The notes: generated from the sequence alone by a model not told the origin. A stretch of DNA of 64,000 nt from Chloroflexota bacterium (GCA_040758495.1 JBFLVL010000009.1:27516-91515); one strand, 5' to 3'. Positions 23,291-57,631 are shown, counted from the stretch's first letter. Translations and numbers: made by a program.

Positions 23291-26200
23291 GGTTGCTTCA
23301 TCACTTCATAGATAACTGTATCCCCATCTCTATATACCGATTGCCAATAGATACCATCCCAGGCAGTAAACTTCTCCAGGCCAGGACCCGGGTAGGCGGC
23401 GCGTTCCAGTTGACCGACGATGATATACTGTACATCATATTCTCGCAGGAATTTCACCGCGGTACCAATATCCCCTGTCAGGTAAAACTCGTTGATTTGG
23501 GTTACACGCTCAGTGACTTTTTCTGGCGAAGCTGGACCCCGTTGTTGACGTTGATGCCAGTCCCACCCCACTACACCTGGGAGGCCAGTGTAAATGGTGA
23601 AGCGAGAGAACCAATGATACAGGTTGAGTGAATTGGCCTCAACAATCACCGGGGAACCTTTTACCTGATCTTGCATCCACCGAATAGCCCGGTAATCCTG
23701 GCTGAGATCAAGTTCCTTGTTGAGGTCAAAGTAGGTAGCATATTGCATATAAGCCATTCCGTCCAGTGTATGTGGAGCTTCTGAGGCCATGCGGTCTTGA
23801 ACCTTGGCTATCGTGCCTACGAAGGGAAAGAGCGCTGCCCCAGCTACCAGGAAAGCGAGTGCCAGTTGCCAGAATAACCTCCAGCCTGGTAGCCAGTATT
23901 TGAGATCACGCCATACTAAGCCAAGTGCCACGGCTGCACTCACCGAGAATAACACCCAGGCTTGAAGATAGAATTTAAACACTGTGTTCATCCGACCGAT
24001 ATCACCGCTAACCACGATGACCTCTACCATGAGCGTGAGTGTTAATCCCAACCCCACAAAGAAGAGCAAAACCCGTTTGGTATCCGATAACCCTGAACGA
24101 AGTAACAAAACCCCTACCCAAACGATCAGTGGTACCACTAACCAGGCTATATGTACCCCATAATACATCAATCCTGCAACACTTACGACCAACAATACCA
24201 CACCAATCTGGATAAGGCCAAAATACGGTCGGATTCTAGATAACGCCGATAAGGGCGTGGAGGCCAACCACTGGCGCGTTTCCCAGATTATCCAACCCAC
24301 AATCACAAACAGGAACAAACCCCAATGGGTTAAATAGGCACCCGATGGGGTCCGTGGCCCCTTCCAAAAATCAACCGTCCGGTAACCTTGAGCGTACCAG
24401 TAAGCATACGGTTGATAAAGCAGTATGGCTAAACCTGCTAGAACAGCCATTCCCAGTAAGATGACTAACACGAGCTTGACCACCCTGATTAACCGCTCCG
24501 ATAAATCCGTAGGATTTTGACCTACCTGAATATCCCTATCTTCGTTTCGATACCACCACAATGTATACGCCACCGCAACCATGCCCAGGGGGAGATAGGA
24601 GTAGATATCGGACAGGTTGATGGGATAAAGAGCACCGATAATCAAGCCACCGAACATGAAACCCCACGCTATCTGCCCAATAGAGCGTCGGCTTTGTCCT
24701 TCCCTCTTCCAGGCACGGCCGAAAACAAATGATAACGCCCAGGCTATCGCCAGCAATGCCACGGGAATAGCAATGAGATGTGCATGTAAATCCGCATACA
24801 AAACAGTAAAAAATGGGAACTCTGTGATGGGCTCCACATCCCCTTGGGGTGGGATCACACGGCTGGGATTCCAATACCATTCATCGGCACGATAAGGCAA
24901 TTTCGCTCCCGACAGCGTCTCGAAAAATCCACGCGCAGCCCAAAACCAACGGATTAACACCCCTCCACCTTCCAATGAACCGGTTGGAGATCCCAGTTGC
25001 TGCAACCCGTGGAAGATCATGCGCACCACACCCAGGTTGCCCAGAACAGCCAACCCTAACCCCGCGGCTATCCCGACAAAAAATGTCATTCCTTTCCAGG
25101 GTTTAGCCCACCGCATGGCCTGAGAGGCAGCATCCTTGTTTTTAGGGAAAACCAGATTCCACCCGATGGAAAAAGCGCCCATGGCCATCAGACTGAATAT
25201 GCTGGGGATAACCAAATTGTACACCACTGTCGGGCTGATACCTAACAGCTTGATCCATACACCCACAAGCACAAATCCGTAGTAGTAATAGTTGATGTAA
25301 CCACCGGCATACCAAGGATCATAGGGCGGGAATGTGGTGCTCTTCATCACAGCATTCAAATAGGAAAAATCCATCGGTTTTTCGCCACCCTTGTATGGGT
25401 GCCATAAATCCGAGTTGCCCAAACGGATAAAGAGGTCGAAGAGGAAAAACGCCAGCATGAGAGCCTCTACCATAAGGAAGTACTTCTTGCGTTCCCTCCA
25501 TTCTTGTCGCAACGCCTCCCTTTGGCAATACGCCAGAATCCCGGACACCAACATGAAACCAAGGAACACCCCCAGGATCGTCAACCGAGTGGCAGGAACA
25601 CCCAGAGACCCTCCCAGCCACACCGGATATGCAAACATCAACAATCCGGCTATCCGCGCCAGAGGATAGCCCCTATCTGCCAACCCGCTCAAAGCCAGAC
25701 GGATGATCGGGTAGGCAAGCAAGCCTAAAATCAGTACGCTCACATACCAGAAGATGGCTCCCAGTGCGGGGTAGAGATTAATTATCCAATCTGAGGGGAA
25801 TAATTCCGCCCAGGTGCCGCCCTCTCGCTGTTCAACCAAACGTCCTTCGGGGAGCATCAGACTCTTCAGAACAACCTTACTGGCTTCCTCGGTCGCGCTC
25901 GCACGGACACTCGAGAGGTCTACGCTACCCAAGATTGCAGCTACTGCTTCGGGATCATAATCCGAGGATTTACGGAAGATGAACACCTTGGGGTGGTCAT
26001 ACACCGTAAAGGATTCTTCTGCAAACTGGTCGTTTATGCGCCATGAACCCAGATTAGGATCGGACTGAAATACTTTAATCAAGTCAAATCCTAAATCCCC
26101 CTCAAAACTACCCACCTGAGCAATGTTGTAACACCACTCCAAAGTATGGCCTTGCGGACATCCCATCAGGTGCTGGTAATACGCCCAGGTGAGAGGGTAA

Positions 26201-28170
26201 TGTCCAGGCAGACGCGTGATGCTACCCCACTGACGGCTCGAAGAAATTATCAGGTATTCCGCATGGTCAAGGATGTTGATAAACCTGGCTAATTTATCGG
26301 AGTTGTCCTCCCAATACAGTTCGAAGGTTAGGCCATTCTGATAGATTCCACCGAAACCATCGTAACCATCTATTCGCAGAGGCAAGCCGTCATCCCAGGA
26401 AGACTCGTTGGCAATTGACGCTCCAGATAAAGCCAGGGCTCCGTCGCCTTCCACCAAAGCCAGGTTAAGGTAGTAACTCTGATCCTGGCTCAAAGCCACC
26501 GGAGAATCAAGAGGCAGCCAGTATCCTTGCCCGAGCTGGTCATCATTCACCAGAAAATCGCTCTTCACGTGAGCCTCTCCGATGGGGCCACCGTCCAGTC
26601 GGGTTGAAACTGTAAATTGCAGCGTCTTTTGTTCAGGGATGGCTTCTTTATCTACCACATGGGGTAAATACATACCCTCCAGAACAGCGTCAACTTGTGG
26701 TGTGATTCCCCGGGTGTATGGTAAATCAGGGGTAATCGTGTAATCATACGGAAAGGCAACAGGTTGGTTGACCTGCCCTTCAGTAGTGACTAATTGCAGA
26801 TTGATAGCTCCCGGTATGTTTGCAAAAATCCAGCGGGAGGCTTCGATGCGGGTAACAGAGCGGGTGTAAATGCGCGAAAAAGCCCAGGCCCAGGCAAAAG
26901 TACTGACCAGGACTGATACACCCACCACAATTGCCACAGACCGCCGGAAGAGCTGACCTTTTCCGCCCCAGGCAAACCTGGCCACTACCCAGGCAGCGAA
27001 GATCGCTAACGTTGGATACACGGGCAGTTGATAGCGCATCATGGGGTTGAAAATGGAGGATTGCCAGACGAAATAAACCGCTGTCCATGACCACAGGATT
27101 GCATGTTGTCTCCATTCCCCGCGCAACATCCTCCAACCAGCAAACAAAAATCCGCACCATGCCAGCAACCCCAAAGGCATCCCCAAACCCCATCTCACCA
27201 TGTTGATCCAGGCGAACCACATGGGACGGTTTGCCCACTGCAAAGAGGGTGGAAACGTATAAACAGAATCTGCACTTGCCAGCCGTTTCAACTCCTGCAA
27301 GTTCCCTATCCATTGTGGGTTCAGCTTTATGCCCCAAAAGCCCGGACCACTGAATGCATACGGTTGCAGCACACGGAAGGTTACTAAAGCGGTGATCGCA
27401 GCCAGGACAAGGTGAACCAGTGCTGCCGGGAAAGTCCGTCTTTGTTCTTCGGGCGAAGTCTTGCTCGCGCGTATCCACTCTGCCAGGAGCAGGACGAACG
27501 CCACGGGAGCTGCGTTCACCTTCGAGGCCACTGCCATTCCCAAAGCCACTCCGAACAATACATACAAAAGAGTGAAGTTGCCAAACAATCCCCGCAACTG
27601 TTTACTGAGTTGAGAACTACCATCTGACGGCCGTTCGTCCGTAGCTACCCTTACCGCAAAGTATACGGTCAGCAAAGCAAAGAAGGCCATAAAAGTGTCT
27701 TCTTTGAAGAAGTGAGAGAGCTGGATGTCCAGGACAGAAAAAGCTAAAAACGCAGCCGCCAACAAACCCACCCAGCGGTTGTACAACCGCCTGGCGATCA
27801 GGTATACCAGCAATACCATCCCCAGGTCCACCAGCGCGGATATCGGTCGGCCCACAAGGTGGATCTGACCGTAATCGGCCTTGTCCAACCATTCTGCCAG
27901 GTAGCGCACCAGAAAGATGGGGAAGGTGCCATACACGAAAAATGGGTGACCGCGGTTATGAGGGTTCAATGTCGAATTGGCTGTATCGAAATATTCCCCC
28001 AAAGACTTTACCGGTTCCAGGCTGGATTCAACCATCATCAGAAACCGCTCATCGGGATGCAGATATACTGCTTCATCCCAATTTAATCCTGCCAGCCGAA
28101 GATACCCCCCCACTATCAGGACTAAAAGCAGACAGATATGTACTATCCACTCGCTTGAGCGTTTACCCAA
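23287..28170 (-). CDS. Giant (1627 aa) fusion membrane protein: N-terminal GT-C (PMT_2-like) module, central extracytoplasmic domain, C-terminal YYY-motif module
   Basis: The N-terminal loop is ...GLNWDEAVYLHPDERFLMM.... The middle ~340 aa are non-hydrophobic. The C-terminal half carries ...STTFPPYDPWYAGGYINYYYYGFVLV... and a C-terminal tail similar to that of the 829-aa paralog. Confidence 0.8.
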   Translation of the reverse strand: MGKRSSEWIVHICLLLVLIVGGYLRLAGLNWDEAVYLHPDERFLMMVESSLEPVKSLGEYFDTANSTLNPHNRGHPFFVYGTFPIFLVRYLAEWLDKADYGQIHLVGRPISALVDLGMVLLVYLIARRLYNRWVGLLAAAFLAFSVLDIQLSHFFKEDTFMAFFALLTVYFAVRVATDERPSDGSSQLSKQLRGLFGNFTLLYVLFGVALGMAVASKVNAAPVAFVLLLAEWIRASKTSPEEQRRTFPAALVHLVLAAITALVTFRVLQPYAFSGPGFWGIKLNPQWIGNLQELKRLASADSVYTFPPSLQWANRPMWFAWINMVRWGLGMPLGLLAWCGFLFAGWRMLRGEWRQHAILWSWTAVYFVWQSSIFNPMMRYQLPVYPTLAIFAAWVVARFAWGGKGQLFRRSVAIVVGVSVLVSTFAWAWAFSRIYTRSVTRIEASRWIFANIPGAINLQLVTTEGQVNQPVAFPYDYTITPDLPYTRGITPQVDAVLEGMYLPHVVDKEAIPEQKTLQFTVSTRLDGGPIGEAHVKSDFLVNDDQLGQGYWLPLDSPVALSQDQSYYLNLALVEGDGALALSGASIANESSWDDGLPLRIDGYDGFGGIYQNGLTFELYWEDNSDKLARFINILDHAEYLIISSSRQWGSITRLPGHYPLTWAYYQHLMGCPQGHTLEWCYNIAQVGSFEGDLGFDLIKVFQSDPNLGSWRINDQFAEESFTVYDHPKVFIFRKSSDYDPEAVAAILGSVDLSSVRASATEEASKVVLKSLMLPEGRLVEQREGGTWAELFPSDWIINLYPALGAIFWYVSVLILGLLAYPIIRLALSGLADRGYPLARIAGLLMFAYPVWLGGSLGVPATRLTILGVFLGFMLVSGILAYCQREALRQEWRERKKYFLMVEALMLAFFLFDLFIRLGNSDLWHPYKGGEKPMDFSYLNAVMKSTTFPPYDPWYAGGYINYYYYGFVLVGVWIKLLGISPTVVYNLVIPSIFSLMAMGAFSIGWNLVFPKNKDAASQAMRWAKPWKGMTFFVGIAAGLGLAVLGNLGVVRMIFHGLQQLGSPTGSLEGGGVLIRWFWAARGFFETLSGAKLPYRADEWYWNPSRVIPPQGDVEPITEFPFFTVLYADLHAHLIAIPVALLAIAWALSFVFGRAWKREGQSRRSIGQIAWGFMFGGLIIGALYPINLSDIYSYLPLGMVAVAYTLWWYRNEDRDIQVGQNPTDLSERLIRVVKLVLVILLGMAVLAGLAILLYQPYAYWYAQGYRTVDFWKGPRTPSGAYLTHWGLFLFVIVGWIIWETRQWLASTPLSALSRIRPYFGLIQIGVVLLVVSVAGLMYYGVHIAWLVVPLIVWVGVLLLRSGLSDTKRVLLFFVGLGLTLTLMVEVIVVSGDIGRMNTVFKFYLQAWVLFSVSAAVALGLVWRDLKYWLPGWRLFWQLALAFLVAGAALFPFVGTIAKVQDRMASEAPHTLDGMAYMQYATYFDLNKELDLSQDYRAIRWMQDQVKGSPVIVEANSLNLYHWFSRFTIYTGLPGVVGWDWHQRQQRGPASPEKVTERVTQINEFYLTGDIGTAVKFLREYDVQYIIVGQLERAAYPGPGLEKFTAWDGIYWQSVYRDGDTVIYEVMKQP

Positions 28171-28183
28171 ACCTCACTCCTTG

Positions 28184-30310
28184 TCAGGGCACAAGAAAAA
28201 TCATGAAATCCTTCCCCTCAACCGCAGAGACATATCGCTGGAGAATACCCGAAGGATACATATCCGTCAACAAGATACCGGTTAGCTCGTCCTCGGGTTT
28301 ATAAATAAACAGCTTCGGAGGGGGGATCTCAAGGGTCGCGGGTAAATCCTTCCCCCATAGGGCATAGTCCTTCTCTGGCAAACCCACGTTGATTCCCACC
28401 ACGCGGGTATCCACCCAATGGGGAAAGGGTACGACCCAGGCAGTTTCCGCCTCACCGATCGAATCAGCGTACGAACGGATGACATGTCCGATTTCGCTCG
28501 TGTTCCATGTGTTTTGCCTCATCTGGCGGAAATATTGATCGAATACCAGATCATAATTCTGGATAGAGGACCACGATAAAAGGAGGAAGACTGCTCCCCA
28601 GAGGATTCCACCCCCCGCGCGGGTTTTCACCGCGGATTTCAGGCTGGTCAAAAAACCCTCAAACAGAATCCCCACCACAACAAAGACCGGCACAATTGCC
28701 CCACCTGTACGATTCAGAGAAGGATTCTCAGCCGGAAACGCCAATGAAAGCACAGAAGGCATCAACAGCATAGGTATGGATAATAATAAAAAGGCGTCTT
28801 CCCATTGCCGCCTGCGGATGTAGCGAGTTAAGAGAAATACTACTCCCAAAAAGAACAACGCCCCCGAAACAACATCCAACGCCGGACGATGGGTAACGGA
28901 GTGCACCCAGGTCGAGCCGTCGTCCCAAAAGAACATGGTCACCGCCCCCCACAGGTTATCAAAAAAGATGCGAACAGGAGAATCGGGGTAACTCCGCTCC
29001 ATCGTACCAATTCGGGTTAGCGTTCGATAGGAAAAGTTAGCCGGCTCTGCCAGAGCATAACGCAGCAGAGGGAGAAAGACGACAAAAGAAACCAACACCA
29101 GAGCCACCAAAGCCCAGATGGTTTGTACGCGAGCGCCCTTAGACACTCTATGCAACAGATACAAACCTACACCCAATAACACTAAGAAAGGTACAAAACG
29201 GAAAGGGCTGTATCCGTGTAACCCTAAACCTAACGCCAACCCTGCCAACAGCAAATCATTACGGTTCCGGTTTCGCAACCCTCGTATCAGGTAATATAGA
29301 GTTGGAGCGACAAACAGAGGATAAAAAGCAAAGCGTAAGGCGATACGAGAAATCACATTTGGCCAGTAAGCAATGCCCGCGAACAGCATGGCCCATAAAC
29401 CCACCCGTTTTCCCCCCACTTCCTTCCCTAGCAGGTACACATAAGGTAAAGTCAAAACACCTGCTAAAGCTGTACCAATTTTTAAGCTGAGGTATGTCAG
29501 GCCAGTCCCCAACACTCTGGCCACCAGCGCGGTCACGACCATTTGTATGGCCTCCCGTCCGGTGTTGCGAGGGAAGAACACCCACCAGTTACCCCGGAGC
29601 ACATCAGCAACATCCAGCAATTTCTCAGCATGGTCACTGATCATCTCCGGAGGGACATCTCCCAGACGATAAAAGCGGAAAAACACTGCCAGACCAAAAA
29701 CCCCCACCCAGGAAATAGCCCAGGGAGTGATACGCACCCACCAGGTACGTTGAGCAATTCCCTCGCGCAACCTCGCAAACCAATCCCTAAAGGACAAGCC
29801 TCGCGACACCCAAAACGTTTTTAACAAGGCTACAACGGTCAATAACCACAGGAAGAGGTTTAAGCCATCAAAGCGCAAGCTACCAAAAGCTAAAAACGTG
29901 AAAACCGCCAGGGGAATAAAAATGTAGAACCAGTTACTTTTGATGGTCAAAGGGTCTTCCATGTGCAGGCTGGGGGGAATATCTGGGCCTGACCACTCCC
30001 CTCGCCAGATTAACCAGACCAACAACAAACCAGCCAGTGCATAAAAAGTTATCCCTACCCAGATGTTCCTGTCCCCTGGTTCTAGGGAACGCTGGGCGAT
30101 AAGAGCCAACGCTACAGGCAGCCACATATACCAGATAACTGCTGGCCTCTTCCCTTCCCTCCCAGGAGGTAGACCACCAGGTTCAGGAAACCCCTCCTCC
30201 ATAGCCTCACGTTTGGGAATGTCAGGCGCGGGACCCTTCCAGGGGGTTAACTTCGCCTTGAGGTAATCTAATACGCTTGGTTCTGGTTGTCCGTTTTCCT
30301 TCATCATCAT
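28184..30310 (-). CDS. Glycosyltransferase family 39-like (ArnT/PMT-like) membrane protein
   Basis: The 708-aa ORF has more than 10 TM segments and the loop FYRLGDVPPEMISDHAEKLLD. The track start overlaps the methyltransferase gene by 89 nt. An internal ATG at 30202 (MEEGFPE...) would remove the overlap. Confidence 0.7.
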   Translation of the reverse strand: MMMKENGQPEPSVLDYLKAKLTPWKGPAPDIPKREAMEEGFPEPGGLPPGREGKRPAVIWYMWLPVALALIAQRSLEPGDRNIWVGITFYALAGLLLVWLIWRGEWSGPDIPPSLHMEDPLTIKSNWFYIFIPLAVFTFLAFGSLRFDGLNLFLWLLTVVALLKTFWVSRGLSFRDWFARLREGIAQRTWWVRITPWAISWVGVFGLAVFFRFYRLGDVPPEMISDHAEKLLDVADVLRGNWWVFFPRNTGREAIQMVVTALVARVLGTGLTYLSLKIGTALAGVLTLPYVYLLGKEVGGKRVGLWAMLFAGIAYWPNVISRIALRFAFYPLFVAPTLYYLIRGLRNRNRNDLLLAGLALGLGLHGYSPFRFVPFLVLLGVGLYLLHRVSKGARVQTIWALVALVLVSFVVFLPLLRYALAEPANFSYRTLTRIGTMERSYPDSPVRIFFDNLWGAVTMFFWDDGSTWVHSVTHRPALDVVSGALFFLGVVFLLTRYIRRRQWEDAFLLLSIPMLLMPSVLSLAFPAENPSLNRTGGAIVPVFVVVGILFEGFLTSLKSAVKTRAGGGILWGAVFLLLSWSSIQNYDLVFDQYFRQMRQNTWNTSEIGHVIRSYADSIGEAETAWVVPFPHWVDTRVVGINVGLPEKDYALWGKDLPATLEIPPPKLFIYKPEDELTGILLTDMYPSGILQRYVSAVEGKDFMIFLVP

Positions 30311-46890: not shown

Positions 46891-47178
46891 ATGTTCTCTC
46901 AAGCGAAAACCTGCGTAAAGAACGCGCTACAAACCATCCGTGAAGTCTTATACGGCATGACCATATACGATTGGGCGCGCGAACTCGAAAGGGCCCGCAA
47001 CGAACGTGATCGTCTCTTCACAATGATCGCATACGGAGAACTGCTCGGTATTCCTATCCTGCCTCCCTATTACATCTTACGCCTGATACCCTATATTGTG
47101 CCAGACTTCCCAAGCTGGCAGCGAAGTATGTTGCGCGAACGAGATCTCACCGATCTCTTCGATCAAGAAATTGGATAA
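46891..47178 (+). CDS. Small protein A (95 aa), unassigned family; paralog of the next gene
   Basis: An AAGGAG SD lies at 46882-46887. The C-terminal half is ...GELLGIPILPPYYILRLIPYIVPDFPSWQRSMLRERDLTDLF. Confidence 0.75.
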   Translation: MFSQAKTCVKNALQTIREVLYGMTIYDWARELERARNERDRLFTMIAYGELLGIPILPPYYILRLIPYIVPDFPSWQRSMLRERDLTDLFDQEIG

Positions 47179-47197
47179 ATATAAGGAGAACTTCACC

Positions 47198-47476
47198 ATG
47201 ACAGAAGAAGAACGACAAAATATCCTCAAGAGAGCAGGAAAATCGGCCATCGAATTCATCTATGGCATGGCCGGTCACGATATGACTCGCTTCGCCCTGA
47301 AAACCAGGGGGAGTATGGAGCATTTGTTTATCCTGATCACCATGGGTGACTTGCTCGGTGTGCCCATCCTGCCACCTTATTATTCGCTGCGGTTGCTGCC
47401 ATATGTCGTTCCACAAATTTCGACCTGGAAACGGCGCATGTTGCGCGAGCGCGACCTGACCGATGCCCTGGCTTAG
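47198..47476 (+). CDS. Small protein B (92 aa), paralog of small protein A
   Basis: An AAGGAG SD lies at 47183-47188. The C-terminal half is ...GDLLGVPILPPYYSLRLLPYVVPQISTWKRRMLRERDLTDAL. The track's extension to 47096 overlaps gene A and is rejected. Confidence 0.75.
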   Translation: MTEEERQNILKRAGKSAIEFIYGMAGHDMTRFALKTRGSMEHLFILITMGDLLGVPILPPYYSLRLLPYVVPQISTWKRRMLRERDLTDALA

Positions 47477-47490
47477 AAGGGAGCTGATGC

Positions 47491-48492
47491 ATGTCTCTGG
47501 CACGCATTTTTGACGAACATCCAGAACGACGCTACATTATGTTTGGCGGCAAGGGCGGCCTGGGAAAGACCACCTTTTCGGCTGCCACGGCCTATTATCT
47601 GGCCAAAAAAGGCCATAAGGTGTTAGTTTTTTCCGTAGATCCCCAGGCTTCCCTCTCCGACATCTTCGAGCGCGACATCTTTGGACAGGGGGCAGTGGAG
47701 ATTATGCCCAACCTCTACGCCCAGGAGATCGACGCCGACCGTCACATCAAGGAATACCAGGACGAAATCCGCCAGAAGATCTTCGATATGTACGGCCTGG
47801 AGGAAATCCCTGAAGAGATCGAAAGTTATATCCAGGCTGCCGCGGCCGAACCGGCCATGGAAGAGAGCGCCATCTTCGACCAGGTGGTTGATATCGTGGT
47901 CAGCGCAGAATATGACTACTATATCTACGACCTGGTACCTCTCGGTCACGCGCTTTATTACCTGAGCATGGCCAGCGTGTACGACGAGTGGATCGACAAG
48001 ATCACCAAGCTTCGCCAGGAGATGGAGGAATACAGCAAGGTGGCCTCACTTATCAAGCGCGAAAAAGAATTCGAAGAGGATATGATCCTCCAAGAATTGC
48101 TCGATATCAAATACCGCATCAACACCTCCTCCGGTATCCTGACAGATAAAGATAAGACGGCCTTCTTTTTTGTGATCATCCCGGAAGAGATGGCCTTGCT
48201 GGACACCCAAAAAGCAGCCGGTTTGTTTGCCAAATACCAAGTGCCCCTAAGCGGTTACGTGGTAAACCGGGTCATTCCACCCGAATTAGAGCAGCAAAAT
48301 ATCCCCGATTATTTACGTCATCGCTTGGATATGCAAGGAGGCTATCTAAAACGAATTGACGACCTATTCAAAGAGAATGTGTTGGCCCGAATCCCTGAGT
48401 TCGAGCGCGACATCACTGGGCTGCCAATGATTCGCAAAGTTGCCGAGGCGATGTTTGGCACGATACCAGCAGACGAAGGAGCATTGTCATGA
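47491..48492 (+). CDS. ArsA/Get3-family P-loop ATPase, paralog 1
   Basis: The 333-aa ORF has the deviant Walker A FGGKGGLGKTT, the switch-I-like SVDPQASLSD, and the switch-II position YDLVPLGHA, which keeps GH but has lost TAPT. An AAGGGAG SD is present. Confidence 0.85.
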   Translation: MSLARIFDEHPERRYIMFGGKGGLGKTTFSAATAYYLAKKGHKVLVFSVDPQASLSDIFERDIFGQGAVEIMPNLYAQEIDADRHIKEYQDEIRQKIFDMYGLEEIPEEIESYIQAAAAEPAMEESAIFDQVVDIVVSAEYDYYIYDLVPLGHALYYLSMASVYDEWIDKITKLRQEMEEYSKVASLIKREKEFEEDMILQELLDIKYRINTSSGILTDKDKTAFFFVIIPEEMALLDTQKAAGLFAKYQVPLSGYVVNRVIPPELEQQNIPDYLRHRLDMQGGYLKRIDDLFKENVLARIPEFERDITGLPMIRKVAEAMFGTIPADEGALS

Positions 48493-49466
48493 TTGAGAAG
48501 TCAATGCAAGATTATTTAAAAGAGAATCCCCGGCTGAAATACACCTTTTTCGGTGGTAAGGGTGGTGTTGGAAAGACGGTTCTGGCAGGTGCGATGGCCT
48601 TGGGATATGCCAGGCAGGGTAAGAGCACCATCCTGGCCTCCACAAACCCTGTTCACAGTCTCACCAGCCTGCTCGATCAAGATGTCTTCGGAAAACCAAC
48701 GCTTGTCTCTGGTGTACCCAATCTGACAGCTTATGAGATCGACACGCGTGATACCATCGAACGGTCGAAGCTGGAAATCCGCGAGAAGATCAGCTGGTTC
48801 CTCAAATTCGCCGACATCAAAACCAAGGCTGATGAATTCGTCGAATCGGCTACAATGAATCCTGCATTCGAAGAGTCGGCCATGTTCGAAAACATGATAG
48901 ACCTGATGTTCAAAGACGAGTATGAAGTCTATGTCTTCGATACGGCTCCGACCGCCAATGCACGTCGCTTGCTAGGCATGTCATCGGTCTATTCGATGTG
49001 GGTCAACAAGATGGTCAAAAGCCGCGAAGAGGCAAGGTCGTTGCGCGAACTGCTATCGTATAGCAAAAAGAAAGAGGAAAAGGATCCTCTTATGGAATAT
49101 CTCCTCAACCTCCAAGATCGGATGGGACGCGCTAAAAACCTGCTTACCAATCCCGCGTTGACTGCCTTCTTCTTCGTCACCCTTCCCGAAGCGCTGCCGA
49201 TTGCCGTGATTACCCGTTTCATCAATTGGTTCGAGGAATTCGGCATTCCAGTTGGGGGGGTAGTGGTTAATATGCTTATTGACAAAGACAGCGTTGCTGA
49301 GGACGCGCCCGAGTTTGTGAGAAACCGGGTCAAGATGCAGGCAAACTATATGAACGAGATATGGAAAATATTCAATGGAAGCGTTCGCTCGCTTGTGCCA
49401 TTATACGAAACTGAGGTGCGCGGCGTCGAGATGCTAGAGAGAACCGCCGACTCCCTGTTCGCTTGA
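48489..49466 (+). CDS. ArsA/Get3-family P-loop ATPase, paralog 2
   Basis: The 325-aa ORF has a 4-nt overlap with paralog 1. It has FGGKGGVGKTV, the switch-I position STNPVHSLTS (D replaced by N), and switch II FDTAPTANA, which keeps DTAPT but has lost GH. Confidence 0.85.
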   Translation: MIEKSMQDYLKENPRLKYTFFGGKGGVGKTVLAGAMALGYARQGKSTILASTNPVHSLTSLLDQDVFGKPTLVSGVPNLTAYEIDTRDTIERSKLEIREKISWFLKFADIKTKADEFVESATMNPAFEESAMFENMIDLMFKDEYEVYVFDTAPTANARRLLGMSSVYSMWVNKMVKSREEARSLRELLSYSKKKEEKDPLMEYLLNLQDRMGRAKNLLTNPALTAFFFVTLPEALPIAVITRFINWFEEFGIPVGGVVVNMLIDKDSVAEDAPEFVRNRVKMQANYMNEIWKIFNGSVRSLVPLYETEVRGVEMLERTADSLFA

Positions 49467-50228: not shown

Positions 50229-50900
50229 CTACGCTTTGACTAAACTTATACTTTGCAACCAGGCCTGTAAGGATGAAAAGAATTCTTCCGAAGGACTACT
50301 CATCAAAGGGGAGATGAATACTCGCACAGCCAGATGAGGCGCCTTACGCCCCAAGGAAATCCTTTGCACCGTCGCCCCTTCTCGCGCCATAAATGCCTCT
50401 AGTTTCTCCAGGCTTTCAGGATTGGCCTTGCCTCGATAAGCAATCTGAAATTGCTCCAGGCCAGATACAAGCTGGAAGGGACGCTTAGGATCATGCGCTA
50501 ATAATTTCGCGAAAGATCGATCGCGTTTCCGGGCTACCTCCAATTCCAGAGGCGGTGAATTTCGCAACCAGGCTTTTAAAATCATCTCGTCACGCTTGTT
50601 TCTCAACAGATTGAACAACCACAATGGCAACAACTCGCGCGACTCCAACAGAAAAACCACCTCAATCTTTTGAAAAGGGGCTGTTGCTCTTTTTACTGCA
50701 ATCTGAGCGCCAGATCCCGATGAGCCAATCCAGCTCACTTCTGATAGCTTGCCAATTTTTTCTAACCCATCACGTATCCACCGGTAAATCAGGATGCCCC
50801 GTTTGCGGTTCAGGTAGGCAGCCACCACATACCAGGCTAGCAGGAAAATACACAATCCGATGACAATCCACTGTCCTAAATCCCATTCTCCGAAATTCAT
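50229..50900 (-). CDS. Hypothetical protein with a single N-terminal TM helix
   Basis: The 223-aa ORF is convergent with the TPR gene. I recognised no motif. Confidence 0.6.
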   Translation of the reverse strand: MNFGEWDLGQWIVIGLCIFLLAWYVVAAYLNRKRGILIYRWIRDGLEKIGKLSEVSWIGSSGSGAQIAVKRATAPFQKIEVVFLLESRELLPLWLFNLLRNKRDEMILKAWLRNSPPLELEVARKRDRSFAKLLAHDPKRPFQLVSGLEQFQIAYRGKANPESLEKLEAFMAREGATVQRISLGRKAPHLAVRVFISPLMSSPSEEFFSSLQAWLQSISLVKA

Positions 50901-53851: not shown

Positions 53852-53972
53852 CCTGCAAGTTGTAACCATCTTGTTATCATATCGTACAGGCACCTGCCAT
53901 AACCACCCTGGCAACATGTCAAATCGTCTCACGAAATTAAATATCATAGAAAACCCGAAGTGCAATTCTAAT

Positions 53973-55991
53973 ATGCCCGTGAAAAGGCCGTCGCATTATT
54001 TAATAATAACTGGCTTGATACTCGCCCTGTTCTTATCGGCGTGTTCATCTGCGGGAACAGCTGCCCTCCCGACCGAAGACCACATTGAGACAGTAACTAC
54101 CAGCCTTGTAGAAAATGAGGAAGAAGAGCGAATCATCGGAATCATCACTGCGGTGATCGGACTTTTACTCATGGCCTCCCTGGTTGGCATCGTCACCAAC
54201 CAGTTACGTTTGCCGTACACGGTAGGATTGGTGCTCATTGGGCTTGCCCTGTCACTGCGGGGTCAGGAAAGAATATACATTCCACCTGAAATATTTCTGG
54301 GCTTACTTGTACCACCCCTGATATTCGAGGCTGCCTTCCATATCAAAATAAGAGACCTGCAAAGGGACCTAATGCCCATACTTACCCTGGCTATCCCCGG
54401 TGTGTTGATCACCACATTACTTGTAGGCGGTGTCGTAGCCTGGGGCACAGGCTTCCCACTGGCAGTAGCTCTCGTCTTCGGAGCCTTGGTGGCAGCCACC
54501 GACCCAGTAGCTGTAGTGGCACTCTTCCGAACATTGGGAGTTCCTAAACGACTACAGGTACTTCTGGAGGGCGAGAGCCTCTTCAATGATGGTACAGCCA
54601 TTGTTGTCTTCAACTTGATGACGGTTATAGCGGTGAGCGGGGTTTTCGAACCTCTGAGGAGTATGATGGATTTCGTCATTGTTTCCGGGGGAGGTTTAGC
54701 TGTCGGTTTCGTGTTGGGTATATTCATCTCCCAGGCCATCAGCCTCTTCCACAATCCCATGATCGAAACCACATTGACCACCGTCCTTGCGTTCGGAGCT
54801 TATATCGTCGCCGAGCAACTGCATGTCAGCGGCGTATTAGCTGTTGTAGCTGCCGGCCTGGTCAGCGGGAACATTGGCCCACGCGGCATGTCACCATCTA
54901 CACGTATTTTAGTATTCAACTTTTGGGAATACGCTGCTTTTTTAGCCAACTCGATTGTCTTTTTGTTGATTGGTTTTCAAATCAACTTGCAGGTGTTGTT
55001 GGTCAACTGGCAGGTCACAACCTGGGCGATACTGGCAGTGTTAGTCGCTCGCGCCGTAAGTGTATACGGGCTCTCAGGGGTTGGTCCAGGGGTGCCAAAG
55101 CGCTATAAACACGTTCTATATTGGGGAGGATTACGTGGTGCTATTTCGCTGGCACTGGCTCTCAGCATCCCCACCTCTTTGGGTGCCCCCAGAGACGAAA
55201 TTCAAACCATGGCCTTTGGTGTGGTGCTTTTTACCCTCCTGGTGCAAGGTCTGACGATGAAACCTTTGATCACCAAAATGGGCCTCATTCAACGCACCAG
55301 AGCCCAGGAGGAGTACCAACGCCGTCACGCCCGTGCCATAATGGCCCGGGCTGCGTATGACCGCCTGGAGTACATGTATAAGGAGGGGTTGCTCTCCAAC
55401 CACGTCTGGGGGTTGTTATCCGAACCCATCCGGTTACACGCTGAAGGCTTGGCAAGCGCGGTGACTGAAGTCCTGCAAGCTGATCCAGGTTTAGAAGCTG
55501 AAGAAGTGGACTCGGCGTTGCGAGATCTGCTGCAAACCCAACGCAGTTCACTGACTACCATGCTCAGGGACGGGTTGATCTCCGAAGACACATTCTCACA
55601 GCTCGTCATGGAGGTAGACACAGCGTTAACCGAACAACGTTCAAACTTGATCGAACTCCTGGTGTACAGAACCAGCCGAGCTATCCATGGGCTGATGGCC
55701 ATTGTTTTACAGGAAGCAGATGTAGAGAACGTGGTCGCGGCACTGAGCCGCCAGGGTCTACCCACAACCAGACTATCCAGCATCGGTGGCTTCCTGCACC
55801 AGAAAAACACCACTCTGTTAGTGGGAGTACCGGAAGGACAAGAGGATGCCATCCTTAAAACCGTCACCAAAACCAGCCGCCAGCGGGTTGAATCGTTCCG
55901 CGTCTCCGCGGATGGCATCGACACTTCTCCTCCTGTCACTGTGGGTTCAACGATCTTCGTCTTTGACGTCGAGCGATATGAGGAACTCTGA
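53973..55991 (+). CDS. CPA1 (NhaP-type) Na+(K+)/H+ antiporter with a long cytoplasmic tail ending in a PII-like cyclic-di-AMP-receptor (DarA/PstA-like) domain
   Basis: The core has ~12 TM segments with ...FGALVAATDPVAV... and ...LEGESLFNDGTAIV.... The C-terminal ~105 aa are LMAIVLQEADVENVVAALSRQGLPTTRLSSIGGFLHQKNTTLLVGVPEG...GSTIFVFDVERYEEL. The start was placed at ATG 53973 (MPVKRPSHYLIITGLILALFLSAC). Confidence 0.85.
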   Translation: MPVKRPSHYLIITGLILALFLSACSSAGTAALPTEDHIETVTTSLVENEEEERIIGIITAVIGLLLMASLVGIVTNQLRLPYTVGLVLIGLALSLRGQERIYIPPEIFLGLLVPPLIFEAAFHIKIRDLQRDLMPILTLAIPGVLITTLLVGGVVAWGTGFPLAVALVFGALVAATDPVAVVALFRTLGVPKRLQVLLEGESLFNDGTAIVVFNLMTVIAVSGVFEPLRSMMDFVIVSGGGLAVGFVLGIFISQAISLFHNPMIETTLTTVLAFGAYIVAEQLHVSGVLAVVAAGLVSGNIGPRGMSPSTRILVFNFWEYAAFLANSIVFLLIGFQINLQVLLVNWQVTTWAILAVLVARAVSVYGLSGVGPGVPKRYKHVLYWGGLRGAISLALALSIPTSLGAPRDEIQTMAFGVVLFTLLVQGLTMKPLITKMGLIQRTRAQEEYQRRHARAIMARAAYDRLEYMYKEGLLSNHVWGLLSEPIRLHAEGLASAVTEVLQADPGLEAEEVDSALRDLLQTQRSSLTTMLRDGLISEDTFSQLVMEVDTALTEQRSNLIELLVYRTSRAIHGLMAIVLQEADVENVVAALSRQGLPTTRLSSIGGFLHQKNTTLLVGVPEGQEDAILKTVTKTSRQRVESFRVSADGIDTSPPVTVGSTIFVFDVERYEEL

Positions 55992-55993
55992 CC

Positions 55994-56260
55994 ATGAAAA
56001 TGATCGTTGCTATTGTTGACGATACCAAATGTACCGAAATCACTCAGGCCTTGTTAGAGGCAAACTTCCGTATCACTCGCCTGGCCTCCACGGGTAGTCT
56101 GCTGCGGGTGGGCATGACCACTCTCATGGTGGGTACGGAAGACGAACAATTAGACCAAGCTCTGAACGTGATACGGGAAAGATTTCCCCCCTCCTCAGAC
56201 CCCAACAATACACAGGCTACCGTTTATGTCCTCAACGTAACGGGATACAAACGGGTATAG
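55994..56260 (+). CDS. Short stand-alone PII-like DarA/PstA-family protein, copy 1 (degenerate ligand-loop signature)
   Basis: The 88-aa protein begins MKMIVAIVDDTKCTEITQALLEANFRITRLASTGSLLRVGMTTLMVGTED.... It starts 2 nt after the antiporter stop. Confidence 0.8.
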   Translation: MKMIVAIVDDTKCTEITQALLEANFRITRLASTGSLLRVGMTTLMVGTEDEQLDQALNVIRERFPPSSDPNNTQATVYVLNVTGYKRV

Positions 56261-56283
56261 AACATGTATGGGAGATCGAGCCA

Positions 56284-56550
56284 ATGAAGATGATTGTCGC
56301 CATCCTCGACGACGAAGACGCAGAAGTTGTTATCCAGGCTCTACATGAAGCTGATTTCATCGTTTCTTGCATTGATTCCACCGGAGGCTTCCTCCGCCAG
56401 GGAACCAGCACGCTCATGATTGGCTCAGACGAAACCCGCATAGACCAGGCAATTCAAATTATCAACACACATTGCGCCCCTACCATCGAGCCCATACAGC
56501 GCAAAGCAACAATATTCGTCCTCCATGCAGAACATTTTGAGCAAATGTAA
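56284..56550 (+). CDS. Short stand-alone PII-like DarA/PstA-family protein, copy 2
   Basis: The 88-aa protein begins MKMIVAILDDEDAEVVIQALHEADFIVSCIDSTGGFLRQGTSTLMIGSDE.... Confidence 0.8.
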   Translation: MKMIVAILDDEDAEVVIQALHEADFIVSCIDSTGGFLRQGTSTLMIGSDETRIDQAIQIINTHCAPTIEPIQRKATIFVLHAEHFEQM

Positions 56551-56623: not shown

Positions 56624-57631
56624 TTACATCACCGGAGGATTCTGCCACACTGCCATTTCCAAGGTCACACGGGAGAAAAAGCTCTCTGGGGGTAACGCTC
56701 CTTCTCCATATTTCATATCCACAACGCGTGCCACCAGTTGCAGTGCTCTTGTTTCCAATACAATCTGTATCCCGGGTTCGACCAATATCGGTTCGCCTTT
56801 AGCTGATAAGCGTTCCCGGGTAGCTTCATCATTGAACAGATGAGCCGACATACAAACCTTGGTTACTGTTTGAATATCATTCTTATCAAAAAGCCACAAC
56901 TCGAATGCACTCACCTTCTTGGGGTCACCTACTCCAATGGTCTCAGATATCCCCACCCCACATTCGCCCAGGAACTCCCCCGAAGGCGAATCAATAGCAA
57001 ACGAGTTGTCGTACAAATCATCTCCCAACTCATATGTGGTCATAAATTGCGCCAGGGGAGGTTCCTGTGAGACCTCTTCCTCAGATAAAAACGACTCGGC
57101 CATATCTAATGAAGGCTCTCTCCCTGGAGAAACCACCTGAGTAGGGCGAGCCCCACCTTTTCGCTTGCGTAAATAGAAAATACCCAACAAAGCAGCAGCA
57201 AACAATAAGGTTATCCCACACATCCAGGGTAACCATACTTTTGGACTGGCTACACCCTCTACTGCCTCTTCGGTTGGTATCTCCCCCACCAGCAGAGCAC
57301 CAGTAACCATAGACTTAAAGGCAGCAATTGCAGCCTCACTCTGCAATCCCGGATTCTCCTCAACCTTCGCCAACAATAGTGGAGCCTCTTCCCCTAAATC
57401 ATTCCACCGCCTCTTAGCAACCTCTAAATCCATATTCGTGGAAAACGAGTCGATCGCCATGCGCAAGTAGTCTTCTTTTAAATCTTCTCGTAGATGGGCT
57501 GGCGCTGCATCCATCCATTGTACAGGCATCAGCCACCACCCAAGCACAACCAGGCCAATCACCACCCCAATCGCAAACCCCATCCCGAGTGCAATCCAAG
57601 GATTTTTCAAGTACTCACGAATCTTGTCCAT
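56624..57631 (-). CDS. Hypothetical bitopic membrane protein (2 TM segments, acidic linker, C-terminal globular domain)
   Basis: The 335-aa ORF has TM segments at about aa 12-35 and aa 150-170. I recognised no family motif. Confidence 0.6.
   Translation of the reverse strand: MDKIREYLKNPWIALGMGFAIGVVIGLVVLGWWLMPVQWMDAAPAHLREDLKEDYLRMAIDSFSTNMDLEVAKRRWNDLGEEAPLLLAKVEENPGLQSEAAIAAFKSMVTGALLVGEIPTEEAVEGVASPKVWLPWMCGITLLFAAALLGIFYLRKRKGGARPTQVVSPGREPSLDMAESFLSEEEVSQEPPLAQFMTTYELGDDLYDNSFAIDSPSGEFLGECGVGISETIGVGDPKKVSAFELWLFDKNDIQTVTKVCMSAHLFNDEATRERLSAKGEPILVEPGIQIVLETRALQLVARVVDMKYGEGALPPESFFSRVTLEMAVWQNPPVM

Follow-up and report, generated by a model that had tools for sequence, protein, structure and literature searches.

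PstA and DarA are one of the most conserved kinds of c-di-AMP receptor. Each forms a homotrimer that has three identical sites at its subunit interfaces, and neither has a known target. According to reviews from 2023 and 2026, extensive efforts have yet to identify the interaction partner, in line with a remark in the first-pass annotation of the present DNA that the targets of this family are poorly defined. A long B' loop (about residues 68-93) separates PstA from classical PII proteins. Mutation of T28, GGFL, or N41 in S. aureus PstA abolishes or weakens c-di-AMP binding, and Listeria PstA, with G26 at that position, can dispense with Arg26.

The same second messenger controls the K+/H+ antiporters CpaA and KhtT, and the sign of this regulation differs between reports. 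In B. subtilis without c-di-AMP, gain-of-function NhaK and loss of DarA are both suppressors, and apo-DarA is inhibitory. Here we describe a locus from a Chloroflexota bacterium in which an antiporter and a PstA/DarA-type domain are encoded as one protein, followed by two short genes of the same receptor family. No paper on such a fusion was found in the literature.

Three adjacent genes encode an antiporter and two free subunits

Throughout, the window is the whole 64-kb stretch of DNA that was analysed. The following features define the gene layout:

53973..55991, + strand: antiporter gene with a C-terminal PstA/DarA-type domain (ORF, 672 aa from the ATG at 53973)
55980..55985, + strand: Shine-Dalgarno-like GAGGAA in the end of the antiporter gene, 8 nt 5' of the copy A ATG (sequence)
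55994..56260, + strand: free short subunit A, 88 aa, no B' loop (ORF, PF06153)
56270..56275, + strand: Shine-Dalgarno-like GGGAGA, 8 nt 5' of the copy B ATG (sequence)
56284..56550, + strand: free short subunit B, 88 aa, no B' loop (ORF, PF06153)

ORF calling recovered all three genes at the positions first claimed for them, including two 88-aa paralogs that both start with MKMIVAI. The antiporter ORF spans 53871/53973..55991 (+). NCBI places its start at a GTG two codons further in (53979), and the resulting 670-aa protein (P0001, 'MAG: Na+/H+ antiporter [Chloroflexota bacterium]') is 100% identical to the window antiporter. Intergenic gaps are 2 nt between the antiporter and A and 23 nt between A and B, with both Shine-Dalgarno-like sites lying 8-14 nt upstream of the start codons. 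At the first junction the stop codon TGA is followed by CC and then by the ATG of copy A, an arrangement that suggests translational coupling. No PF06153-like domain other than the tethered one, A, and B occurs in the 64-kb window; given this, the short gaps, and the Shine-Dalgarno-like sites, their proximity is not due to chance.

The antiporter appears complete and carries a receptor-family domain

Four features were distinguished along the antiporter:

54027..54044, + strand: lipobox-like LFLSAC, residues 19-24, at the end of an N-terminal signal-like helix (sequence)
54168..55274, + strand: transmembrane antiporter core, residues 66-434 (PF00999 Na_H_Exchanger, E 2e-72)
55299..55631, + strand: cytoplasmic linker of four long helices, residues 443-553 (AlphaFold)
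55683..55991, + strand: tethered PstA/DarA-type domain, here called F, residues 571-672 (PF06153, PDB matches, AlphaFold)

Beyond PF00999, the protein matched TIGR00831 (a_cpa1) at 303.5 bits against a cut-off of 279.6, with residues 61-550 covering profile positions 3-518 of 525, a span that takes in both the membrane core and the cytoplasmic region C-terminal to it. Electroneutral CPA1 exchangers (PaNhaP/NhaP1) bind ions through TD and ND motifs. The window antiporter has ATDP at 175-178 and FNDG at 204-207; D177, N205, and D206 were invariant in 28 homologues, and both motif types were present in 107/120 database matches. A Foldseek search with its AlphaFold model matched SLC9C1, SOS1, NHE1, NHE9, and PaNhaP. 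Because the a_cpa1 score exceeds its cut-off, the TD and ND motifs are invariant, and the fold is that of a CPA1 exchanger, the antiporter looks complete. The two profiles thus uphold its initial identification as a CPA1 antiporter, and we classify it from sequence as NhaP/NhaK-type, a predicted cation/proton exchanger.

The AlphaFold model of the full protein is of moderate quality (pLDDT 70.9, pTM 0.56), with parts of the tail below 50. At the N-terminus it shows a helix at 6-23 and a low-confidence stretch at 21-51, and an L-x-[AG]-C motif occurs within the first 60 residues of 60/119 full-length homologues. The linker helices span 443-470, 476-503, 505-532, and 538-553 (pLDDT about 75-85). 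Since the a_cpa1 profile reaches residue 550, the linker is assigned to the ordinary antiporter family. No RCK_C/TrkA_C or RCK family was among the Pfam matches at E <= 1 for the antiporter and free copies.

Domain F and both free copies belong to PF06153, the PstA/DarA family, rather than to GlnB, CutA, or another PII-like family. Residues 575-670 of the antiporter matched PF06153 (CdAMP_rec) at 51.4 bits (cut-off 27; profile 4-107 of 109), and the tail alone scored 56.1 bits. Copies A and B scored 71.8 and 72.5 bits, matching only profile positions 1-63 and 1-65 of 109, respectively. Scores of all three against classical P-II (PF00543) were below its cut-off of 25, at 13.6-17.5 bits, and the ATP-binding B-loop motif TGxxGDGKI is absent from F, A, and B, as it is from PstA. 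The best sequence matches among solved structures were L. monocytogenes PstA, B. subtilis DarA/YaaQ, and S. aureus PstA (E 1e-11 to 1e-6; 1e-7 for domain F and 4e-11 for copy B). Copy A was modelled as a compact PII-like fold (pLDDT 88.7) with strands at 2-9, 26-32, 41-48, and 75-81 and helices at 10-22 and 50-63. Its top Foldseek matches were the PstA/DarA structures 4rww, 4wk1, 4d3h, and 4rle, ahead of classical PII. Domain F was modelled as strand-helix-strand-strand-helix, a disordered loop, and a strand, the same order of elements as in copy A at lower confidence. The PF06153-type assignment originally proposed for these domains therefore holds by Pfam, PDB sequence matches, and the fold of copy A, and the DarA motif cited with it is present in the alignment to 4rle. 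Against the NCBIfam DarA equivalog NF058593 (cut-off 140), scores were 54.2 bits for the full antiporter, 58.8 for its tail, 74.8 for A, and 70.7 for B, indicating family members as opposed to DarA orthologues.

Ligand-contact residues are divided among the three domains

To compare the binding sites, we mapped ligand contacts from the S. aureus PstA complex and mutagenesis, numbering the contact residues as in PstA. The loops in question are located as follows:

55785-55796, + strand: domain F T' loop, GGFL (sequence)
55803-55814, + strand: domain F KNTT (sequence)
55887-55946, + strand: domain F B' loop VESFRVSADGIDTSPPVTVG, residues 639-658 (aligned to PstA B' loop)
56093-56104, + strand: copy A degenerate T' loop, GSLL (sequence)
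56383-56394, + strand: copy B T' loop, GGFL (sequence)

Residues at PstA positions 24, 26, 28, 47, 108 / 34-37, 41, 99 are:

Domain F: G P T G E / GGFL N F
Copy A: N R T G R / GSLL M Y
Copy B: D I S G Q / GGFL T F

The T' motif TKLxxxGGFLxxGNTT, with T28, GGFL, and N41, is present in the fused copy (TRLSSIGGFLHQKNTT), partial in copy B (SCIDSTGGFLRQGTST; S28, T41), and retains T28 without GGFL or N41 in copy A (TRLASTGSLLRVGMTT). Domain F keeps the GGFL/N41/F99 side along with T28 and G47, but it has no R26 and E replaces Q108. Hence, the early description of the fused signature loop as intact is correct for GGFL and N41 and does not extend to R26 and Q108. Copy A has an intact R26/T28/G47 side and a degenerate T' loop side (GSLL, M41, Y99). 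Copy B has GGFL, T41, F99, and Q108 on the T' loop side and an altered R26/T28 side (D24, I26, S28). The grading already given to the free copies, with the first degenerate and the second mostly intact, agrees with these residues.

The B' loop has 20 residues in F, 6 in each of A and B, and 26 in PstA. These lengths identify the short loop, as read from the alignment, as a deletion in the free copies and not an insertion in F. The stretch of about 20 aa reported as missing from the free copies is thus a genuine difference, although its interpretation as an insertion in the fused copy is not.

The fusion and both free lineages are conserved

The antiporter-receptor fusion noted at first reading is widespread among its relatives. 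PF00999 and PF06153 were fused in 119/119 full-length proteins among the 120 best database matches, the single exception being a protein annotated as partial. Across 83 loci, comprising the window, two further loci (L001 and L002), and 80 species-representative genomes, 71 had the fused gene, and every one carried an Anaerolineales or Chloroflexota label. Loci had 0, 1, 2, or 3 free paralogs, with a second fused antiporter in some, and 11 fusion-only loci had more than 1.3 kb of downstream sequence and no partner gene. Because of this variation and the partnerless loci, one fused plus two free subunits, the arrangement first taken to imply a trimer, is not a rule of the family.

We considered whether the free genes could be functionless decaying duplicates or gene-calling artefacts. 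The degenerate signature loop of copy A would fit decay, as would the length of A and B, which are shorter than the 109-aa family profile. However, A-type orthologues from the window, L001, and L002 are 57-61% identical and B-type orthologues 61-62%, versus about 40% between A and B, which marks the free copies as conserved orthologous lineages by sequence. At least 16 species-level genomes have intact A and B ORFs of 86-93 aa in this order, with identities of 53-67%, making these lineages as conserved as the tethered domain. A profile of the 88-aa subunits matched 6557 proteins at E <= 1e-5, and among the best 120 of these almost every protein is 88 aa long. Together with the confident compact model of copy A and the Shine-Dalgarno-like sites preceding both genes, this conservation contradicts decay or artefact, which we regard as extremely improbable.

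Variants of the locus also separate or merge these parts. Five genomes have an antiporter ORF that terminates directly after the linker and is followed by a separate PF06153 long-loop gene (111-122 aa) and then a short one (86-93 aa). At three other loci (L083-L085) the long and short genes stay and the antiporter is missing from the syntenic site. Among the best 150 representative matches, 37 are tandem proteins that combine one long-loop with one short-loop domain. By core identity, F and the free long-loop domains resemble the N-domain of these tandem proteins and the short subunits resemble the C-domain. Such split versions and tandem fusions show, at the level of sequence, a recurring unit of one long-loop plus one short-loop domain that probably acts as a pair.

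Residue counts favor a mixed ring

We next counted contact residues by subunit type over these related loci, which are not phylogenetically independent:

Fused domains (n=74): R26 1, T28 52, Q108 0, F36 63, N41 69, F99 72
Free long-loop domains (n=16): R26 0, T28 3, Q108 3, F36 16, N41 16, F99 16
Short free subunits (n=93): R26 67, T28 90, Q108 64, F36 68, N41 35, F99 65

In the window's clade (16 loci), the first short subunit (A-type) had R26 in 16/16 and N41 in 0/16, and the second (B-type) had R26 in 0/16 with GGFL mostly kept. Where a fused domain is followed by two short subunits, or fused and short genes alternate twice (n=20), R26 was present in 17/20 first and 4/20 second subunits, and N41 in 3/20 first subunits. 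Loci with one free subunit retained R26 in 23/27, T28 in 27/27, Q108 in 24/27, F36 in 24/27, and N41 in 17/27. At three loci with one fused and one short gene (L057, L061, and L074) the T' loop of F is destroyed, and partner R26 is lost in four such loci, including these three. The three look like a single lineage, and the covariation between T' loop and R26 amounts to roughly one event. Selection would have reason to keep half of a site only where a different type of subunit provides the rest, and the asymmetry between tethered and free residues favors a putative mixed ring with one dead A-B site.

The principal competing explanation is that the free subunits form their own homotrimers, or trimers of A and B only, acting as soluble c-di-AMP receptors or buffers, with any antiporter contact made by docking or stacking on F instead of in a shared ring. 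Single free subunits usually keep both half-sites, so a homotrimer could bind ligand. F itself retains T28, G47, GGFL, N41, and F99, and in principle a homotypic F ring could do the same. Tandem proteins imply a 1:1 ratio, and both of their domains keep both half-sites and are fully canonical; two stacked homotypic rings would fit them at least as well as mixed rings. Long/short gene pairs and tandem proteins were also found without an adjacent antiporter. Conversely, the sites of both A (GSLL/M41) and B (D24/I26/S28/T41) in the window are incomplete, but the half that each retains is conserved across the clade. In F, the T' loop side hardly varies, but the R26/Q108 side has been lost, as expected if a partner supplies the latter. 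Moreover, building a homotypic F ring would take the tails of three antiporter chains, and CPA1 exchangers are dimeric. On balance, we judge separate rings to be rather unlikely.

A different objection is that the module does not sense c-di-AMP. It may have been taken over for a structural, autoinhibitory, or assembly role in the antiporter, or its ligand may be a different one, for example an adenine nucleotide or, as in SbtB, cAMP, with the degenerate free copies serving as ligand-independent scaffolds. F, A, and B score 54-75 bits against the DarA equivalog cut-off of 140, and in each at least one contact residue is not that of canonical PstA. The T' loop motif is wholly lost in the three loci mentioned above, and PII-like transporter caps can serve other ligands, as suggested for AexB. 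Sequence searches of the window and fetched loci returned no diadenylate cyclase, c-di-AMP phosphodiesterase, or c-di-AMP riboswitch. In opposition, T28, GGFL, and N41 are the most strongly conserved residues once spread over subunit types, PF06153 is the best family by both sequence and fold, and the 2-oxoglutarate/ATP motifs of classical PII are absent from the PstA family. DAC genes are reported in most bacteria. We therefore consider a module unrelated to c-di-AMP sensing unlikely, slightly more so than separate rings.

A proposed mechanism for antiporter regulation

We give about even chances to the reading in which the three genes form an operon whose products F, A, and B co-assemble as a mixed c-di-AMP-sensing trimer that regulates the antiporter. 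Most likely, one such PII-like trimer would sit beneath each antiporter protomer, with a favored ring order of F-A-B and a presumed 1:1:1 stoichiometry. c-di-AMP, the predicted ligand, would occupy two interfaces, both flanking the tethered F. Site 1 would combine the R26/T28/G47 side of A with the GGFL/N41/F99 side of F, and site 2 the T28/G47 side of F with the GGFL/F99 side of B. The A-B interface, having lost both halves, would be dead. Once ligand is bound, the T' loop would be reordered, as would the ring's single B' loop, contributed by F, and the change would pass through the four-helix linker to alter antiport activity. Cation/proton exchange, whichever cation is carried, would thereby be coupled to the c-di-AMP signal of potassium and osmotic state. 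Analogues are no guide to the direction of the presumed effect: a recent report has c-di-AMP inactivating CpaA rather than activating it.

The model faces a symmetry mismatch, because CPA antiporters assemble as dimers and PII-like proteins as trimers. A mixed ring, if correct, would be one way for a trimeric sensor to be coupled to a dimeric transporter, with each protomer of the two-fold transporter served by a three-fold sensor. It would also be the first PII-superfamily sensor obligately built from different gene products with divided ligand sites.

An antiporter-PstA-type fusion kept across a bacterial order, along with split and tandem versions, constitutes "Rosetta stone" evidence for functional partnership. 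It points to cation/proton antiporters as a target of a receptor family whose target has been unknown for more than a decade. A broader proposal is that CPA1 antiporters of the NhaP/NhaK type are the PstA/DarA target class, with a mixed trimer of two live sites in Anaerolineales and with apo-DarA restraining NhaK-type K+ export in Bacillus. We hold this proposal to be possible but doubtful. The connection between the NhaK and DarA suppressor results is our own inference and not that of the original authors; if valid, restraint by apo-DarA would explain why DarA loss or gain-of-function NhaK rescues cells lacking c-di-AMP. The open question of the PstA/DarA target becomes concrete: binding to NhaK/NhaP-type antiporters, and gating of transport by the tail and free subunits. 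Should the module prove not to bind c-di-AMP, the finding would amount only to a regulatory tail confined to one lineage.

Comparison with known systems

CpaA (S. aureus) and KhtTU (B. subtilis) resemble the present system in joining an antiporter to a cytoplasmic c-di-AMP module, fused in CpaA and separate in KhtT. Theirs is an RCK_C/TrkA_C domain on a CPA2-type antiporter, whereas here a CPA1 antiporter carries a predicted PII-like sensor. In GlnK-AmtB and SbtB-SbtA, the gene for a trimeric PII-fold sensor adjoins that of a transporter, which the sensor binds according to nucleotide state, and SbtB also binds c-di-AMP. There the targets are trimeric and match in symmetry a free homotrimeric sensor, which acts through a long T loop in place of a B' loop; neither a covalent tether nor loop-less accessory subunits are part of those systems.

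AexB, of the YitT type, likewise has a PII-like domain fused to the C-terminus of a transporter as a predicted cap. It differs in being a predicted trimeric channel with a homotrimeric cap from another PII-like family, no free paralogs, and no link to c-di-AMP. SLC9C1 and SOS1 were the best structural matches to the AlphaFold model, aligning over 548-609 columns and into the cytoplasmic helices. They too combine an exchanger with a nucleotide-sensing tail, in which a helical domain precedes a cyclic-nucleotide-binding(-like) domain. Both are eukaryotic CPA1 exchangers whose dimeric CNBD binds cAMP or cGMP, and they involve no PII fold or extra subunits.

PstA and DarA themselves share the Pfam family and fold with the domains described here. 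The tethered copy has the T' signature TxLxxxGGFLxxxNTT, and the contacts T28, G47, F36, L37, N41, and F99 are present. Unlike PstA and DarA, all copies fall below the DarA equivalog cut-off, contact residues are divided among gene products, and the free copies are without the long B' loop, a proposed partner-binding element, while one copy is covalently joined to a membrane transporter.

An antiporter gene fused to a PstA-like domain and followed by two short subunits

ORF calling recovered three genes on the same strand, at exactly the positions proposed by the first-pass annotation:

53973-55991, + strand: antiporter-PstA fusion gene (ORF call; alternative upstream TTG at 53871; NCBI model start at 53979)
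55994-56260, + strand: free copy A, an 88-codon ORF
56284-56550, + strand: free copy B, an 88-codon ORF

The junction between the antiporter and A reads TGA-CC-ATG and the spacer between A and B is 23 nt. Shine-Dalgarno-like sequences, GAGGAA ahead of A and GGGAGA ahead of B, lie 8 nt 5' of the respective ATG. All three genes are almost certainly transcribed as one unit, and their translation is probably coupled.

The long protein matches PF00999 over residues 66-434 (E 2e-72, Pfam) and passes TIGR00831, the bacterial CPA1 antiporter equivalog, at 303.5 bits versus a curated cut-off of 279.6 (NCBIfam). The latter match extends to residue 550, which identifies the helical "linker" as the cytoplasmic region that this family normally has. 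Both ion-site motifs, TD and ND, are present and do not vary among homologues. An AlphaFold model of the full-length fusion (pLDDT 70.9, pTM 0.56) comprises a membrane core, four long helices (443-553), and a tail in PII order with a disordered loop at 637-659. Its best structural neighbours are SLC9C1, SOS1, NHE1, NHE9, and PaNhaP, all CPA1 exchangers with regulatory cytoplasmic tails. The protein opens (residues 1-26, window 53973-54050) with a signal-like helix that terminates in LFLSAC, which resembles a lipobox; a low-complexity acidic stretch comes next. The feature was noted at this N-terminus and at those of database proteins P0002-P0026, and 60 of the 119 full-length homologues have a comparable L-x-[AG]-C motif. 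Such a putative lipoprotein-type signal would be unusual on a polytopic exchanger.

Profile searches upheld the proposed PF06153 (CdAMP_rec) assignment, with all three copies above the cut-off of 27 bits. The tethered domain scored 51 bits over residues 575-670 of the long protein, and A and B scored 72 bits each, with matches that start at profile position 1 and stop at 63-65 of 109. The DarA equivalog cut-off of 140 bits was far out of reach (54-75 bits, NCBIfam), and by this measure the three copies are family members, not DarA orthologues. Classical PII, ACT, and HisG-C identities were rejected, as every one fell under its cut-off in Pfam and NCBIfam. The nearest solved structures by sequence were Listeria PstA, S. 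aureus PstA, and B. subtilis DarA, and their alignment showed that the DarA motif given in the first-pass annotation is correct. Copy A, modeled with 58 homologues, gave a compact beta-alpha-beta-beta-alpha-beta fold (pLDDT 88.7, pTM 0.77) for which Foldseek ranked PstA/DarA structures best and classical PII behind.

The fused copy had been credited with a loop insertion that the free copies lack. This segment is instead the family's B' loop (approximately residues 68-93 of PstA), which spans 20 residues in the fused copy and 6 in A and B, making the free copies loop-deleted forms. We rejected a pseudogene reading of these copies given their conserved orthologous lineages, the many 88-aa relatives, and the confident fold of copy A. 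A-type subunits are 57-61% identical to each other, B-types 61-62%, and A versus B about 40%; within the window's clade, sequence identity marks the two types as distinct conserved lineages. Overall, the reported arrangement of an antiporter-PstA fusion with two free paralogs was borne out by ORFs, Pfam, NCBIfam, and conservation, and there is good support both for the family assignment of the PstA-like domains and for their link to the antiporter.

The window as a whole is ordinary core chromosome: among the products encoded nearby are GyrA, RpoC, a sensor kinase, a glycosyltransferase cluster, PanE, CstA, GreA, TopA, and DprA. A mobile-element or defence setting was rejected because the surrounding genes are core ones (GreA, a dGTPase-like HD protein, TopA, DprA, GyrA, RpoC). 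Two ORFs have no Pfam match and begin with a hydrophobic TM-like segment: 50229-50900 (-), of 223 aa, and 56624-57631 (-), of 335 aa, which is oriented towards the 3' end of the antiporter operon. Ahead of an rpoC-like gene (1431 aa, 7541-11836, -), on the same strand, lies a Cache/HAMP/PAS histidine kinase (12124-15444, -) rather than rpoB, and the customary rpoB-rpoC adjacency seems broken. Very large membrane proteins are encoded one after another at 20801-30310 (-), probably as a cell-envelope glycosylation cluster. This stretch contains two DUF2298 paralogs (829 and 1627 aa), the larger bearing a PMT_2 glycosyltransferase domain, as well as another PMT_2 protein (708 aa) and a weak YfhO-like protein nearby. 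At 47096-49466 (+), a 126-aa ORF without a Pfam match precedes two adjoining ArsA/Get3-type ATPase paralogs (333 and 325 aa).

Distribution and architectures of the fusion

Of the 120 best database matches (56-72% identical), the 119 full-length ones all carry both PF00999 and PF06153; the remaining one is annotated as partial. One fused antiporter (P0077, 62% identical, on a 4.3-kb contig) is labelled 'Desulfovibrio sp. S3730MH75'; all other named matches are Chloroflexota, which makes a binning error the probable source of this label, not a second phylum. Scanning one genome per species gave 587 relatives, and the labels of the best 80 are without exception Anaerolineales, Anaerolineae, Chloroflexia, or Chloroflexota. 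We called ORFs in these 80 loci, two further loci (L001 and L002), and the window, and ran a profile made from ten of the domains against them.

Table. Architectures among the surveyed loci (F, fused antiporter; S, short free subunit; L, long free subunit).
F-S: 27 loci
F-S-S (window among them): 17 loci
F alone: 13 loci
F-S-L-S: 8 loci
L-S behind an unfused antiporter: 5 loci
F-S-F-S: 3 loci
F-L-S: 3 loci
S-S: 1 locus
Antiporter, PstA-like domain absent nearby: 6 loci

In 11 of the 13 loci with F alone, the sequence extends more than 1.3 kb past the 3' end of the fused gene. The proposed composition of one fused plus two free domains describes the window's clade; given the varied architecture counts, it is not a rule for the family. 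Three genomes carry another antiporter-PstA fusion, paralogous to the first, between the A-type and B-type genes (L001 8337-10193, L007 4944-6806, L015 6134-7999). These second fusions are degenerate on the side of the T' loop, the GGFL-bearing signature loop (DRLL, GGLL/I41, and GGFL/I41), and match Pfam weakly (32 bits in L001). The window's F-A-B order may descend from this layout.

The two domain types also recur outside the fusion. At five loci (L032, L050, L058, L060, L066), the antiporter ORF (516-521 aa) stops directly past the linker and is followed by a full-length PF06153 gene of 111-122 aa with its own start, then by a short gene of 86-93 aa, a layout borne out by Pfam on L058. L083-L085 share a conserved syntenic position (glycoside hydrolase ... 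AMMECR1) at which only a long-type gene of 141 aa and a short gene of 88 aa occur, with the antiporter missing. At L034, a long/short pair lies 3' of a second, unfused Na_H_Exchanger gene, with one 120-aa ORF between. Searching the full library with the tethered domain returned 750 representatives at E <= 1e-3, and 37 of the best 150 had two domains and measured 161-260 aa, with a single one shorter than 206 aa. Their B' loop is long in the N-domain (median 27) and short in the C-domain (median 10), and core identities pair F and L with the former and S with the latter. Both domains keep the canonical c-di-AMP contact residues. The tandem proteins examined (P0245-P0384; L088 6001-6711, L089 6001-6711, L090 6001-6657) lie in unrelated contexts with no antiporter. 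Hence, a long-loop and short-loop pair recurs in three forms: two separate genes, a single chain, or a long member fused to an antiporter. These patterns are good evidence that the two types act jointly and, in Anaerolineales, that the antiporter is what the pair acts on.

Two further features accompany these loci. The block at L034 5861-9845 (also in L026, L039, and L040), 3' of a fused antiporter, encodes a CBS-pair protein, a CitMHS/ArsB-type transporter, and the unfused Na_H_Exchanger (421 aa), then the 120-aa ORF without a Pfam match and the long and short PF06153 pair; this ion-transport neighbourhood may hold further targets. A conserved ORF, 407-452 aa where complete and ending in ...DG(R/Q)...(MK/LK)WGP, repeatedly lies 3' of the short PF06153 gene in split and F-L-S loci (L058 2568-3926, L032 3832-4353, L048 6445-7668, L060 6407-7675, L066 6483-7718, L026 8351-9658). 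Some copies have a signal-like N-terminus, and the single copy scanned (L058) gave no Pfam match.

Putative ligand half-sites appear divided among subunits

In the S. aureus PstA complex, every c-di-AMP sits between two subunits. We defined the A-side as N24, R26, T28, G47, and Q108 from one subunit and the B-side as F36 and L37 of GGFL, N41, and F99 from the other. In that protein, T28A and GGFL>AAAA each abolish binding, N41A weakens it 26-fold, and c-di-AMP is still bound after deletion of the B' loop.

Table. Conservation of half-sites, numbered as in S. aureus PstA; counts are not phylogenetically independent.
Fused domains (n = 74): A-side R26 1, T28 52, G47 72, Q108 0 (E in 54); B-side GGFL 63-70, N41 69, F99 72
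Free long-loop domains (n = 16): R26 0, T28 3, Q108 3; B-side canonical in 16/16
Short free subunits (n = 93): A-side R26 67, T28 90, G47 88, Q108 64; B-side F36 68, N41 35, F99 65
Window F: 24/26/28/47/108 = G P T G E; 34-37/41/99 = GGFL N F
Window A: 24/26/28/47/108 = N R T G R; 34-37/41/99 = GSLL M Y
Window B: 24/26/28/47/108 = D I S G Q; 34-37/41/99 = GGFL T F

Across the 16 loci of the window's clade, A-type subunits have R26 in 16/16 and N41 in 0/16, and B-types have R26 in none and keep GGFL in most. Among the 20 F-S-S and F-S-F-S loci, the first short subunit has R26 in 17 and N41 in 3, and the second has R26 in 4. As a homotrimer cannot use a site of which only one half is conserved, the simplest reading is a mixed PII-like ring, and we infer that the order F-A-B would fit best. 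In such a ring, A's intact A-side would meet F's invariant B-side, and F's A-side, with the essential T28 and G47 kept, would meet B's intact B-side. The degenerate A-side of B and B-side of A would then face each other as one dead site. At loci with a single partner the short subunit keeps both sides, so one tethered plus two identical free subunits fits better there than two tethered plus one free.

Several points weaken the mixed-ring argument. R26 is dispensable in Listeria PstA, and some loci encode only the fusion. Stacked homotypic rings would fit the tandem proteins, both domains of which keep both sides. At L057, L061, and L074, where F has lost its T' loop, the partner has lost R26 too, but this covariation is not decisive because the three loci appear to be one lineage and the partner's own T' loop changed as well. 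A heterotrimer is plausible, with indirect support for the window's clade from its residue pattern, and is not a rule for the family.

Candidate ligand and regulation

Conservation of exactly those residues validated by mutation favours c-di-AMP as the ligand of the F/A/B module. No c-di-AMP cyclase, phosphodiesterase, or riboswitch was found in the window or the searched parts of the fetched loci. Specifically, no diadenylate cyclase was found with a DGA/RHR motif regular expression in all six frames of the window, or by tblastn of the window and L001-L082 with a CdaA query. For a c-di-AMP riboswitch, Rfam at the gathering threshold returned no match of any kind in the window, and in 14 related loci (148 kb) it reported just two tRNAs. 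According to a recent paper, cyclases occur in most bacteria.

Control of K+/H+ antiporters by c-di-AMP via RCK_C domains is established. A 2026 preprint reports that c-di-AMP inactivates CpaA rather than activating it, and because this reverses the sign, we do not commit to a sign of regulation here. In B. subtilis without c-di-AMP, a gain-of-function NhaK cation/proton antiporter relieves potassium toxicity, and adapting to complex medium also needs loss of DarA or DarB, apo-DarA being inhibitory. Speculatively, a DarA-NhaK link would connect these suppressor results; the authors of that study suggested glutamate metabolism instead.

Relation to known systems

Public databases already record both Pfam domains on these proteins. 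The fusion is named just "Na+/H+ antiporter" (the identical deposited protein is "MAG: Na+/H+ antiporter [Chloroflexota bacterium]") and the short genes "cyclic-di-AMP receptor" or "YaaQ". Campeotto et al. listed three PstA orthologues in two Chloroflexi (Sphaerobacter thermophilus and Thermomicrobium roseum) and did not mention a fusion. We found no description of a PF00999 and PF06153 fusion, of loop-less paralogs, or of divided sites in the literature searched, which did not cover some relevant reviews. The closest known systems are PstA/DarA, the c-di-AMP-linked CpaA and KhtTU, the pairs GlnK-AmtB and SbtB-SbtA, AexB, and the exchangers SLC9C1 and SOS1.
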